IMG/VR virus record: IMGVR_UViG_2690316109_000014
Span: 1 to 10,365 of that record
Source of the DNA: a virus
Taxonomy: Duplodnaviria; Heunggongvirae; Uroviricota; Caudoviricetes
DNA: 10,365 nucleotides
Reading direction: 5' to 3' (one strand)
This document shows, one piece after another, positions 1 through 3,000 of this stretch (positions within the stretch are counted from its first letter, which is position 1; every line of letters starts with the position of its first letter). Position numbers: made by a program.

Positions 1-3000
1 ATAGTGTCCATTAAAAATGATGGACATTATTTTTGTAGAGCCGGAGGAAACAGACCAGACGGTTTAAATGAGCCGGTTACGCTCAGGTTACAGGGCATCG
101 TTCATTAAACGTGCTATGGCAGGTATATACCGAACTGTATCCGAAATCTTTACATAATCGTTTTGAAGAGCTCCAAAGGAGCAGAAATAAGACCTCTTGA
201 CACTGTTTATCCATACAGTTAAAAATAATACTGTATACAAACACAGTATAGAGGGACTTTTATGCGTATTGAGATCTGCATAGCCAAAGAAAAAATGACT
301 AAAATGCCAAACGGTGCTGTGGATGCGTTAAAGGAAGAATTAACCCGACGCATCAGTAAACGTTATGACGATGTAGAGGTGATCGTAAAAGCCACCAGCA
401 ACGATGGGCTTTCTGTTACACGCACCGCAGATAAAGATTCTGCAAAAACATTTGTTCAGGAGACTCTGAAAGATACCTGGGAGTCTGCTGACGAGTGGTT
501 TGTTCACTAATAAACACGTAAAATCGGTAACGGCTGGAAATCATTCAATACTCGCACTATCGAAAGTTCACCAGCCAACCGCAGCACGTCCTGCATACGT
601 CGTGTCTGCGGTTTTTCTTTTTCGCTTACATTGTGTCTGGTTCTTCCGGCCACTCAATATCAGGTGCAGTTGATGTATCAACACGGTTCAGCAACACCCG
701 ATACTTCTTCCAGGCTTCCAGCAACGAGTTTTCTTCCTCCGTTGCGATCTCCAGATCTACAGCATCCTGAAGCGGCGCTATATGCTCACTGGCTACCTGC
801 ATCAAGCTGTTTTTTGTTTCTTCCGCTTCCCGGATCCGGAATAGTTTTTCTGCTTCTGCATCTTTCACCCAGGCTGTGCCGTTCCACTTGATATTCCAGA
901 TCTAAAGAAACTGTCGCAAAAGTCATGGACTGATATAACCCACAAAAAATGCTCCTAAACGTTTTCATGCAGGCAAATGCGTCCACATCAAGGCTTCAAC
1001 CTGGTGCTCTCCACCTGTCACTGGATAAATTTGCCTGTAAAAATCAAACTCCCCCTGCTCATTACCAATACCAATCAGTTGAATGCAATTGCCATCTACA
1101 ATAAATTTTTCCGCCGAAGGAATCAAAATAAAGGCCTCCGGATGTTCATTGGGAAAGGTGTTATCAAGTGTGCGCTGAATATCCCTCTCCAGCAAAACCT
1201 CCTGAGTATTAGCATAAAGCTCTGGCGTAAGTTCATCTATGAAATCGTTACCATCTCTTGGGCGCATATGTATCATTGAATACTGCTGCTCTCCAGATTC
1301 TGATAATCCATGGCGGACAATAAGAACACTACAGCCGCTTTGCTGATTGGTTAGCCATAACGATGAACTTTGCTGGATAGTTTGAGAAATATCCTTTCGC
1401 CGGAGGCTTATACACTGATTACCCAAGCTTATAACTGCAGGCGCATCAAAACGTTCCGGACTATAAGTATCACGCATACCTGTAAACAGAATATAATCAC
1501 TACCAGCCATATCATCTTCCGTTTCTTTTAGTCTTAACAAGCCATCCTCTCTTGTAATATTAACTGTAATTAAAGATGTCTCATCATGATGGGCATAGCA
1601 CTGTGGATTAAGAATTAAATTCTCTTCCAGAAATTTTACAGGATTATTACGTATTTCAGTCATTACGTGCTGAAATTCAGAACGATGAGACACTAAAGAG
1701 TGTCCTGTATTTTGAGATATAATACTACTTACCTTCATTGCTTGCTGGATTTGCCCCTATATTTCCAGACATCTGTTATCACTTAACCCATTACAAGCCC
1801 ACTGCCGCAGATATTCCCGTGGCGAGCGATAACCCAGCGCACTATGCGGATGCCATTCGTTATAATGCTCGAACGCCTCTGCAAGGTTCTTTGCTGCCGT
1901 TAACCCGTCTGGTTTGGGCATGATACTGATGTAGTCACGCTTTATCGTTTTCACGAAGCTCTCTGCTATTCCGTTACTCTCCGGACTCCGCACCGCCGTG
2001 TTCTTCGGTTCAAGTCCCAACATCCGGGCGAACTGGCGTGTTTCATTAGCCCGGTAGCATGAACCATTATCCGTCAGCCACTCCACTGGAGACGACGGAA
2101 GATCGTTGCCGAAGCGGCGTTCCACCGCTCCCAGCATGACGTCCTGTACTGTTTCACTGTTGAAGCCGCCGGTAGTCACCGCCCAGTGCAGTGCCTCACG
2201 ATCACAGCAGTCCAGCGCGAACGTGACACGCAGTCTCTCTCCGTTATCACAGCAGAACTCGAACCCGTCAGAGCACCATCGCTGATTGCTTTCTTTCACG
2301 GCCACTCTGCCTGTATGTGCCCGTTTCGATGGCGGTACAGTAGGTTTTCGCTCAAGCAACAGCGCATTCTGGCGCATGATCCGGTAAACACGTTTGGCAT
2401 TGATCGCAGGCATACCATCAAGTTCTGCCTGTCTGCGAAGCAGCGCCCATACCCGACGATAACCATACGTGGGCAGCTCTCCGATAACATGGTGTATACG
2501 GAGAAGCACATCCGTATCATCAGTGTGACGACTGCGGCGGCCATCCATCCAGTCATCGGTTCGTCTGAGAATGACGTACAACTGCGCACGCGACACCCGG
2601 AGACAACGGCTGACTAAGCTTACTCCCCATCCCCGGGCAATAAGGGCGCGTGCGCTATCCACTTTTTTGCCCGTCCATATTCAACGGCTTCTTTGAGGAG
2701 TTCATTTTCCATCGTTTTCTTGCCGAGCAGGCGCTGGAGTTCTTTAATCTGCTTCATGGCGGCAGCAAGTTCAGAGGCAGGAACAACCTGTTCTCCGGCG
2801 GCGACAGCAGTAAGACTTCCTTCCTGGTATTGCTTACGCCAGAGAAATAACTGGCTGGCTGCTACACCATGTTGCCGGGCAACGAGGGAGACCGTCATCC
2901 CCGGTTCAAAGCTCTGCTGAACAATTGCGATCTTTTCCTGTGTGGTACGCCGTCTGCGTTTCTCCGGCCCTAAGACATCAATCATCTGTTCTCCAATGAC

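Follow-up and report, generated by a model that had tools for sequence, protein, structure and literature searches.

A dinI-like moron with two LexA operators and probable SOS control at the end of a defective lambda-like prophage

The analyzed stretch of DNA (hereafter the window; 10,365 bp of the IMG/VR record IMGVR_UViG_2690316109_000014) contains the b-region end of a lambda-like prophage. A dinI-like gene is located on the plus strand, and the genes that are convergent with it on the minus strand are a fragment of tfa (tail fibre assembly), IS2, NleG, the tail fibre gene, Lom and J. The gene map thus agrees with a sequence-only reading of the window, in which dinI and the tail and cargo genes were described as convergent. 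The same reading had attributed to the gene its own terminator, and a hairpin followed by the U-tract UUUUUCUUUUU was indeed found behind it. The positions of the features are given in Table 1.

Table 1. Features of the dinI-like module and of the adjacent integrase remnant (positions in the window).
Feature	Position	Strand	Basis and remarks
Tyrosine integrase remnant, dusA-type, last ~40 codons	80–200	+	Homology to int of related prophages and mEp460
-35 hexamer TTGACA	197–202	+	Promoter scan, 10/12 matches; left edge of the mobile dinI module
LexA operator 1	201–220, core 203–218 (CTGTTTATCCATACAG)	+	Exact CTGT-N8-ACAG; occupies the -35/-10 spacer
-10 element	TAAAAA 220–225 (17-nt spacer) or AAAAAT 221–226 (18-nt spacer)	+	Former annotated in mEp460 and VT1-Sakai; latter from promoter scan
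LexA operator 2	229–248, core 231–246 (CTGTATACAAACACAG)	+	Exact CTGT-N8-ACAG; over the predicted transcription start
Shine-Dalgarno GAGGG	251–255	+	Direct sequence reading; 6 nt before the ATG at 262
dinI-like CDS, 82 aa + stop	262–510	+	PF06183, E 1.2e-19
3'-UTR hairpin 1	532–576, loop core 541–566	+	Stem GGCTGG/CCAGCC, near-invariant loop
3'-UTR hairpin 2 + U-tract	577–613 + 614–624	+	Fold of 505–640; intrinsic terminator, right module boundary

Upstream of the gene, only the end of an integrase gene is left. In the phage mEp460 and related prophages, an intact int of 1098 bp ends exactly here, immediately upstream of dinI, and in the window the int homology breaks off at position 80, which is the start of an IS66-family end. 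The stop codon of the remnant (TGA, 198–200) lies inside the -35 hexamer of dinI. The prophage is therefore defective, since its int is cut by the IS66-family element and IS2 is present among the cargo genes, but the dinI-like gene and its operators are intact. In intact prophages, where int precedes dinI on the same strand, early-left transcription that reads through could lead to LexA-independent expression of dinI.

The region 197–624 is a self-contained moron comprising a promoter, a gene and a terminator; it is located in the b-region end of the prophage, and the late genes are encoded on the other strand. Its edges coincide with the edges of homology: phage matches to the module extend from 196/197 to about 599–617, many of them beginning at 196–197, i.e., at the -35 hexamer, and the flanks vary among loci. 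In an alignment of distinct promoters, the column identity was 0.97 at the -35 hexamer versus 0.66 just upstream. Of 5,426 complete E. coli genomes, 1,409 (about a quarter) contained one or more near-full copies of the module, and the module or its fragments occupied up to nine places per genome, one of them usually a relic fragment. Stx-converting phages and further inducible lambdoid phages often carry the dinI-like gene.

The encoded protein belongs to the DinI family, as the sequence-only reading had proposed. The score of the PF06183 profile was 70.8 bits (cutoff 24.2), all of its positions (1–63 of 63) were covered, and a phmmer search gave a full-length match to the E. coli DinI (1GHH/7YWA) with an E-value of 7.9e-13. 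Modeling using AlphaFold led to a model of modest confidence (pLDDT 64), for which 1GHH and 7YWA were the top fold matches (TM 0.68, probability 1.00). In DinI, the residues contacting RecA form a hydrophobic pocket (L13, L21, W71, W77 and F78) and an acidic patch (E24, E69 and D76) (PMC9926225). According to the alignment, all eight positions are identical or conservatively replaced in the prophage protein, the equivalents being M15, L23, W73, W79, F80, E26, D71 and E78 in the same order. Compared with distant homologues, codon positions 1 and 2 were 86% identical and position 3 was 48% identical, which indicates purifying selection on the coding sequence. The prophage protein is a paralogue of DinI (an SOS protein) and a predicted RecA binder.

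The sequence-only reading had also described two tandem CTGT-N8-ACAG boxes, one in the promoter spacer and one, called near-consensus, between the -10 element and the Shine-Dalgarno sequence, and had proposed scoring both with a LexA weight matrix. Both boxes are exact matches, and no other match to this pattern was found on either strand of the window. Shuffled windows contained 0.17 matches on average, and two matches were reached in 1 of 200 shuffles. The promoter geometry agrees with the described placement, the core of operator 2 beginning 5–6 nt past the -10 element. A position weight matrix (PWM) was built from the 18 LexA boxes of E. coli K-12 tabulated in PMC3009722, and it gave 23.0 bits for operator 1 and 24.3 bits for operator 2. 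The known K-12 sites, scored with leave-one-out matrices, had a median of 20.5 bits (range 6.8 to 28.8). The third-ranked site of the window reached 8.1 bits, and the top site across 200 shuffled windows reached 19.7 bits, which is below both dinI operators. Judging by these scores, operator 1 is about as strong as operator 2.

The boxes are 28 bp apart from centre to centre in the window and 26–29 bp apart elsewhere. This spacing corresponds to non-integer helical turns, so cooperative binding of LexA is not to be assumed. More than one LexA box on a single promoter is also found at lexA, recN, ydjM and colicin genes, where it goes along with stronger repression or a later induction. Unlike these promoters, the dinI module and its lineage have a specific arrangement, in which the spacer and the start site each contain one box, at a distance of 26–29 bp.

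In the collection of homologous loci, a scan of genome contigs gave only four and an alignment-based scan of viral sequences gave only close relatives; divergent homologues were obtained through three additional single-protein scans. The two-operator layout was found in all 47 distinct upstream regions bar one variant, down to about 60–70% protein identity, and the LexA half-sites were 0.94–0.98 identical across the 47 distinct promoters. Two distant loci, designated L219 and L186 (~70% protein identity), have kept both boxes at a spacing of 26–29 bp with changed inner sequences, a pattern that speaks for selection on the binding of LexA and against mere inheritance. The core of box 1 in these two prophage alleles (CTGTATAAATAACCAG) is identical to that of the chromosomal dinI box, which suggests common ancestry with chromosomal dinI and the addition of a second box. 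Boxes of at least 14 bits were present in 43 of 45 loci with dinI and in none of the 47 loci sharing only the 3' element described below. Operator strength ranged from 12 to 27 bits across alleles.

The putatively SOS-controlled prophage dinI is of an already known kind, which was annotated in the phage VT1-Sakai and partly tested in related phages. The orthologue in VT1-Sakai, H0001 (dinI; GenBank AP000400.1), has the same position at the prophage end, the same convergent orientation to tail-fibre genes and the same promoter layout. Orthologues were also found in cdtI, 2H10, mEp460 and many Stx1 and Stx2 phages; most of them showed 96–100% protein identity, and that of BP-4795 showed 59.8%. 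The VT1-Sakai record contains a 29-bp promoter and a 20-bp feature 'LexA protein, putative SOS box' located 33 nt before the ATG, which corresponds to box 2 here, and in the mEp460 record a promoter is annotated at the same site. However, only a single box was annotated in VT1-Sakai, box 1 being unmarked within the annotated promoter, and the boxes of this phage are far weaker (16.3 and 14.3 bits) than those of the window. For the lineage as a whole, the tight repression predicted in the sequence-only reading may therefore fail. In addition, dinI of VT1-Sakai is followed by the ykgJ-like H0002, which the annotators placed in a single operon with it, whereas in the window it is followed by the U-tract terminator and then by the tfa fragment.

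For the dinI homologues of Gifsy-1, -2 and -3, LexA control and induction by mitomycin C have been shown experimentally (Lemire, Figueroa-Bossi and Bossi 2011, PMC3121763; PMC8072944). Like the gene in the window, they are prophage-borne DinI-family genes immediately behind a LexA box. Nevertheless, the protein identity is 42.5%, the box is single (24.5 bits in Gifsy-2), and the Gifsy genes lie behind the replication genes and outside the b-region, each heading an operon that also contains the antirepressor gene gfoA/gftA and irsA. An operon of this dinI-antirepressor-irsA type was rejected for the window, where the stop codon is followed by a 66-nt UTR and the terminator, the conserved UTR has no start codon and the next gene is convergent. 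The Gifsy-2 sequence downstream of dinI is unrelated to the window. DinI-like sequences under a LexA-controlled promoter are also known from the temperate phages 186 (a coliphage), in its Tum, and PSP3 and Fels-2, in which tum and dinI are split genes (PMC3121763). In these phages, the DinI-like portion is either joined to an antirepressor or lies next to one, and this antirepressor triggers induction; the window contains no antirepressor.

The protein encoded by the chromosomal dinI of K-12 (b1061) shares the family, the fold and the RecA-contact residues (identity ~49%), and its gene has a LexA-repressed sigma-70 promoter as well. This gene differs in having one operator (ACCTGTATAAATAACCAGTA, 22.1 bits), which overlaps the -10 element, a short 3' UTR with some 20 nt ahead of the terminator, and the status of a core rather than a mobile gene. 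In the searchable literature, no experiments on the E. coli b-region dinI lineage were found beyond a hint of co-regulation: the dinI-like gene c0943 of CFT073 co-varied with sulA, umuD, recN and dinI in a transcriptome (PMC2817434). One preprint on the irradiation of EHEC deals with chromosomal dinI.

All these characteristics allow us to assume that the moron is probably an SOS-controlled module, repressed by LexA and induced by damage, which adds to the DinI pool of the cell. Computed here were the strength, position and conservation of the operators, the family, fold and contact residues of the protein, and the boundaries of the module; from them we infer the binding of LexA, the inducibility by damage, the binding of RecA and all downstream physiological effects. 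In the undamaged cell, LexA dimers on both operators, i.e., in the spacer and at the transcription start, would block the binding of RNA polymerase and initiation. After DNA damage, the formation of RecA filaments would lead to LexA self-cleavage, and the near-consensus sigma-70 promoter would fire. With two strong operators versus one at chromosomal dinI, the off state would be tighter and the onset would come later or at higher damage. The effect judged likeliest is one of dose, in which each prophage copy would enlarge the DinI pool during the SOS response and stabilize RecA filaments. Other clients of the RecA groove may then face competition from the extra DinI, among them UmuD and, when the dose is high, also LexA and CI-type repressors.

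It is possible, although we consider it clearly less probable, that the dinI-like protein tunes the induction of its own prophage by slowing the RecA-stimulated cleavage of a CI-type repressor via the filament groove, so that the damage threshold would be raised or spontaneous induction lowered. The conservation of all RecA-contact residues is consistent with this, as is the frequency of the gene in inducible lambdoid phages, with up to nine places per genome including the relic. However, non-polar deletions of dinI in Gifsy-1 and Gifsy-3 left induction unchanged (PMC3121763). This result is not decisive, because the Gifsy repressors are inactivated by antirepressors without RecA cleavage and the Gifsy DinI is only a distant relative. 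The prophage in the window also argues against such a role: its integrase is truncated and it carries IS2, yet the gene and operators are intact, and self-tuning of induction cannot fully explain the retention of dinI in a defective prophage.

The less expected result of the analysis was a two-hairpin module in the 3' UTR, which lies outside the original observation on dinI and LexA. This element (515–613, ~99 nt) is unannotated and more conserved than the coding sequence. In eight distant loci, the loop core of hairpin 1 was 93% identical versus 73% for the coding sequences of the same loci, and the stem pair 533/575 was G-C in 88 and A-U in 24 of 123 distinct copies. In hairpin 2, compensatory changes were found in 8 of 10 stem pairs, and the observed covariation was reached by none of 500 shuffles. 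G-U pairs outnumbered A-C pairs in the copies of the element (209 vs 125), which favours the dinI-sense strand. The sequence past hairpin 2 differs between contexts and the U-tract is absent in many of them. A role as terminator and module boundary explains hairpin 2, but not the invariant loop.

The distribution of the element differs from that of the gene. It was found in 5,241 of the 5,426 complete E. coli genomes (97%), and in K-12 a relic located upstream of ykgJ, in the ecpE-ykgJ intergenic region at NC_000913.3 304183–304494, has retained it next to a decayed dinI fragment. In 47 of 96 viral loci the element occurs without dinI and without LexA boxes, which makes it an independent module rather than a dinI-specific one. 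No Rfam family matched it at gathering thresholds or at E-values up to 1, and its core string was absent from the papers in the searched literature; dinI was not mentioned in the EHEC sRNA papers that were checked. We tentatively propose that the element may be an undescribed, widespread structured RNA module of lambdoid b-regions, in which the 26-nt loop would be recognized sequence-specifically by an RNA or a protein, and which in the present locus, under the dual LexA operator, would be an SOS-induced regulatory or processing RNA carried on the dinI transcript.

Several other functions of the element were considered and rejected. Its conservation across loci with differing integrases and flanks does not fit an att site. 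A peptide on the plus strand would have no start codon, and indels break the frame; on the minus strand, an ORF with an ATG (416–544) extends into context-specific sequence. A promoter of its own was not supported either: TAAAAT is conserved at 519–524, yet the -35 region is unconserved and the promoter scan was negative, and homology of the 3' element starts only about 25 nt before the core. Pairing in cis of the loop with the start region of dinI, hinted at by the minimum free energy fold, is not supported, since in distant loci GUAUUGA is changed to GUAUCGA while the loop is unchanged.

A further explanation is that the second or main payload of the transcription unit is an RNA, i.e., that the two-hairpin 3' UTR, released or acting in cis, is an SOS-induced regulatory RNA or a site of RNA–protein recognition or processing. 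The excess of loop conservation over that of the coding sequence and its third codon positions, the covariation in hairpin 2, the strand bias of the G-U pairs and the K-12 relic all agree with this explanation, and there is a precedent in Klebsiella, where the LexA-controlled dinI mRNA has a lineage-specific segment before its terminator and the sRNA DinR derives from the dinI 3' UTR (PMC10907235). DinR, however, pairs with the ribosome-binding site of ftsZ, while the complementarity of the present element to the ftsZ leader (-60 to +21) was no better than chance, since the fraction of shuffled sequences with an equal or better duplex energy was 0.75 (loop) and 0.47 (UTR); the distribution of the two elements is also unrelated. 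The independence of the element from dinI and LexA boxes in about half of the viral loci, the U-tract that is often missing, the absence of a conserved own promoter, and the negative Rfam and literature searches also weigh against an RNA payload, and we regard this explanation as rather unlikely. Finally, it is highly improbable that the palindromes are inert, by chance or as relics, and the dinI-like gene constitutive or silent: certain alleles do have weak boxes (12–16 bits), but the PWM scores in the window exceed those of every shuffled window, the boxes sit exactly on the core promoter and are strictly tied to the presence of dinI, their half-sites are kept across diverged promoters with differing inner sequence, and homologues are experimentally known to be LexA-controlled (PMC3121763, PMC8072944).

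The probably SOS-controlled dinI module means that many pathogenic E. coli carry additional SOS-wired copies of a modulator of the RecA filament, and its importance appears to be modest. Since operator strength depends on the allele, the dosage and timing of DinI-like proteins could matter under DNA-damaging antibiotics. A DinI-like gene was among the prophage genes linked to later quinolone-resistance mutations in a genome-wide association study (bioRxiv 10.1101/2023.06.20.545734). The dosage could influence the processing of UmuD and thereby mutagenesis, the turnover of LexA, and the cleavage of CI-type repressors and thereby the induction of Shiga-toxin phages. If the conserved 3' element proved to have a function, it would be of greater importance, as an unannotated sequence present in nearly all E. 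coli.

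The segment 197–264 was read as TTGACA-CTGTTTATCCATACAG-TTAAAAATAATA-CTGTATACAAACACAG-TATAGAGGGACTTTT-ATG. A pattern search of the 10,365-bp window found only two CTGT-N8-ACAG sites, namely the LexA operators box 1 and box 2 (see table), which confirmed the tandem pair described in the sequence-only reading. Dinucleotide-preserving shuffles contained 0.17 such sites on average, and two were reached in 1 of 200. Scoring of both boxes, as proposed with that reading, was performed using a symmetrised LexA position weight matrix (PWM) based on the 18 LexA boxes listed for E. coli K-12 in PMC3009722. 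Box 1 scored 23.0 bits and box 2 scored 24.3 bits; the median of the validated K-12 sites was 20.5 in leave-one-out scoring (range 6.8–28.8), the runner-up site in the window had 8.1 bits and the maximum over 200 shuffled windows was 19.7. Since both scores exceed this median and the shuffle maximum, box 1 is strong as well as box 2, and the near-consensus character first attributed to box 2 does not distinguish it. A consensus promoter scan revealed TTGACA (197–202), an 18-nt spacer and AAAAAT, and the curators of the phages mEp460 and VT1-Sakai chose TAAAAA at 220–225 as the -10 element, with a 17-nt spacer. With either choice, the spacer is filled by box 1 and the predicted start site is covered by box 2, in accordance with the proposed placement of one box in the promoter spacer and the other between the -10 element and the SD sequence.

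The product of the dinI-like ORF matched the Pfam DinI family over the whole profile (E = 1.2e-19) and aligned over its full length with DinI of E. coli (PDB 1GHH and 7YWA; E = 7.9e-13). The AlphaFold model showed a beta-alpha-beta-beta-alpha topology with only moderate confidence (pLDDT 64), and its sole significant fold matches were 1GHH and 7YWA (TM 0.68). These results bear out the presence of a DinI-family gene in the prophage. According to the cryo-EM structure of RecA-DinI, residues L13, L21, W71, W77 and F78 of DinI form a pocket for RecA F203, and E24, E69 and D76 form an acidic patch (PMC9926225). They align to M15, L23, W73, W79 and F80 and to E26, D71 and E78, respectively; all eight RecA-contact positions are identical or conservative. 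The identity with eight distant homologues was 86% at codon positions 1 and 2 and 48% at position 3, and the protein is considered to be under purifying selection.

Over 200 loci with genes for relatives of this protein were collected from viral contigs and genomes, and 47 distinct upstream regions were long enough for comparison. All variants except one carry two LexA-like boxes whose positions with respect to the -35 hexamer and the ATG agree. The homology starts abruptly at the -35 (column identity of 0.66 upstream versus 0.97 within the hexamer), and the CTGT/ACAG half-sites (0.94–0.98) are kept slightly better than the N8 centres (0.89). The most informative of the distant loci are L219 and L186 (about 70% protein identity), whose boxes differ in sequence (CACTGTATAAATAACCAGTT plus AACTGTATATTCAACCAGCA) and which still retain the two-box arrangement with a spacing of 26 bp versus 28 bp in the window. 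In an independent sample drawn via the 3' element, the two-hairpin module that follows dinI, a box scoring 14 bits or more was present in 43 of 45 loci with dinI and in 0 of 47 loci without it. From the conserved layout and the dinI-only occurrence, we infer that selection acts on the boxes and that they belong with dinI.

The dinI homologues of the Salmonella prophages Gifsy-1, -2 and -3 lie behind a LexA box and were experimentally shown to be induced by mitomycin C; dinI is the first gene there in an operon that also encodes the induction-triggering antirepressor (PMC3121763). A later regulon study gave one box for each homologue (PMC8072944). The Gifsy proteins share only 42.5% identity with the window protein, and their genes are located elsewhere in the phage genome with one box (24.5 bits in Gifsy-2). 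The chromosomal dinI of K-12 has one box of 22.1 bits, overlapping the -10. In the GenBank record of the Shiga-toxin phage VT1-Sakai (AP000400.1), a 'putative promoter of H0001 and H0002 genes' is annotated before H0001 ('DNA-damage-inducible protein I'), and a 'LexA protein, putative SOS box' is located 33 nt before the ATG, at the exact position of box 2; box 1 is unmarked within the annotated promoter. Both VT1-Sakai boxes score below those in the window (16.3 and 14.3 bits versus 23.0 and 24.3 bits). Thus, the Gifsy experiments and the VT1-Sakai annotation make the LexA-controlled prophage dinI an established kind, and this orthologue was already predicted to be SOS-regulated. The novelty is low, because the finding is known in kind and, for this orthologue, at the annotation level; what is added here is a second operator of equal strength, together with its conservation. 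In a literature search, no experiments on the dinI lineage of the E. coli b-region were found; the nearest hint is the co-regulation of the CFT073 dinI-like gene c0943 with sulA, umuD, recN and dinI (PMC2817434).

Comparison of the 3' flanks revealed that the 3' UTR is conserved better than the dinI gene, and it folds as two hairpins. The 26-nt loop of hairpin 1 is near-invariant: its core (541–566, ...CAUUCAAUACUCGCACUAUCG...) showed 93% identity in eight loci versus 73% for the coding sequence, and the 20-nt stretch 542–561 was 98% identical. In hairpin 2, compensatory changes were found in 8 of 10 pairs, and the observed covariation or paired fraction was reached in 0 of 500 shuffles. Among 123 distinct copies, the alignment of which is imperfect in hairpin 2, there were 209 G-U pairs versus 125 A-C mismatches, and this excess favours the dinI-sense strand. 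Hairpin 2 is directly followed by U5CU5 in the window, and together they should terminate the dinI transcript, as expected from the earlier claim that the gene has its own terminator; the U-tract is absent in many other contexts. The 3' element matched no Rfam family, its core string was not found in a literature search, and neither a conserved promoter of its own nor coding potential was found. A mode of working like that of Klebsiella DinR (PMC10907235) was ruled out, because the element is not complementary to the ftsZ leader.

An exact-pattern scan of viral contigs yielded 96 loci with the 3' element and enough upstream sequence. In 47 of them no DinI-like gene precedes the element, and the element is therefore a module of its own; these loci (about half) are also without a LexA box. 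There, the element typically has the integrase/att side on one flank and convergent tail-fibre or tfa genes on the other, and in the locus L278 it comes immediately after lambda Int, the attP P' arm and the sib/tI terminator. The 99-nt element was found in 5,241 of 5,426 complete E. coli genomes (97%; median of 2 copies, maximum of 8) and is annotated in none of them. A fixed relic copy lies between ecpE and ykgJ (K-12 NC_000913.3, 304183–304494, minus strand; L229, 3184–3495; also L227 and L228). In this copy the dinI 3' fragment is decayed, with deletions and many substitutions, and the adjoining element is nearly intact and stops 12 nt short of the ykgJ start codon. The ecpE–ykgJ intergenic region, part of the core genome of E. 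coli, is thus a remnant of the same prophage end. The corresponding live arrangement (dinI, the element and the ykgJ-like H0002) is found in VT1-Sakai, and ykgJ therefore looks like a domesticated phage moron, i.e., an independent promoter–gene–terminator insert. Of 146 contexts of the element, only 11 have a ykgJ-like gene after it. A dinI-like subgroup (67–80% identity; L167, L169, L171, L174 and L175) is without the two-hairpin element and has another conserved sequence 3' of dinI, CTAAAAAACGTCAACATGCAGAAAACTCGCTATATCCGGCAAAAATGGCATCGCGAATGA..., with a possible 14-codon mini-ORF. It is the conserved 3' element that merits further attention.

The genes beyond the dinI unit form the right end of a lambdoid prophage and all lie on the minus strand; dinI is convergent with these tail and cargo genes, as had been noted. 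IS2 is placed between the NleG-family effector gene and the 257-aa ORF; EspJ was also found in the same neighbourhood of related genomes. An Rfam IS009 match (RF02111; 213.9 bits; 669–867, minus strand) lies inside the truncated tfa fragment, and the K-12 tfa-derived copy between yagU and ykgJ appears by position to be EcsR2, a reported expressed sRNA (PMC4350180); therefore, the Rfam 'RNA' is a tfa gene fragment. In intact relatives a dusA-type integrase gene leads straight into the dinI promoter. Here it is truncated by the IS66-family end, and the prophage is therefore integrase-defective.

Features of the dinI unit and its surroundings in the window
Feature	Position	Strand	Details
IS66-family element end	1–79		100% identity with numerous copies beside tnpA on chromosomes and plasmids
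dusA-type integrase, 3' end	80–200		last ~40 codons; TGA stop inside the dinI -35
Box 1	201–220		core 203–218
Box 2	229–248		core 231–246
SD GAGGG	251–255	+	downstream of box 2
dinI-like ORF	262–510	+	82 aa
3' element	515–613	+	3' UTR of dinI
Hairpin 1	532–537/571–576	+	stem GGCUGG/CCAGCC
Hairpin 2	577–613	+	sequence diverges, pairing kept
tfa fragment	626–868	-	tail fibre assembly
ORF	965–1738	-	257 aa, no Pfam match
IS2	1757–3030	-	IS3 family, orfA/orfB
NleG-family effector	3213–3902	-	type III effector
Tail fibre	4237–5556	-	
Lom	5615–6214	-	
J	6285–9782	-	

The best-supported reading of the dinI unit is a putative LexA-repressed moron. Its core promoter would be blocked by the two LexA operators and released upon LexA self-cleavage during SOS; the DinI paralogue would then bind the RecA filament groove, where a higher DinI-type dose should stabilise the filaments and compete with other groove clients. 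In intact relatives int precedes dinI and is read in the same direction, so that dinI could be expressed independently of LexA by early-left read-through after induction. The selected effect of such a moron may lie in mutagenesis and SOS dynamics of the host or, as the sequence-only reading proposed, in the CI-cleavage threshold of the prophage. Non-polar deletions of Gifsy dinI did not significantly change induction (PMC3121763), which speaks against a large effect on it, but the Gifsy repressors are not cleaved. It also speaks against the prophage-level role that the present copy is kept in a prophage already crippled by IS elements.

SOS regulation of the LexA-repressed moron, as claimed previously, is predicted with strong support from computation and precedent, but the tight repression expected with it would vary between alleles. 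Operator strength ranges from about 14.5 to 24 bits for box 1 and from 12 to 27 bits for box 2. A common variant promoter, CACTGGTTATCCATACAGAT plus ACCTGTACATAACTACAGTT, has only 16.3 and 14.3 bits, and in L180 box 2 has fallen below the threshold; this polymorphism was noted at L351 (VT1-Sakai; 2435–2487) and at loci L172–L181, L194 and L197. Many IMG/VR loci (e.g., L024, L045, L047 and L062–L065) start precisely with the dinI ATG. The LexA-controlled promoter is cut away by automated calls of the prophage boundary, and this regulation would escape catalogue-based surveys. The polymorphic strength of the dinI operators predicts that SOS thresholds would differ among prophages within one cell.
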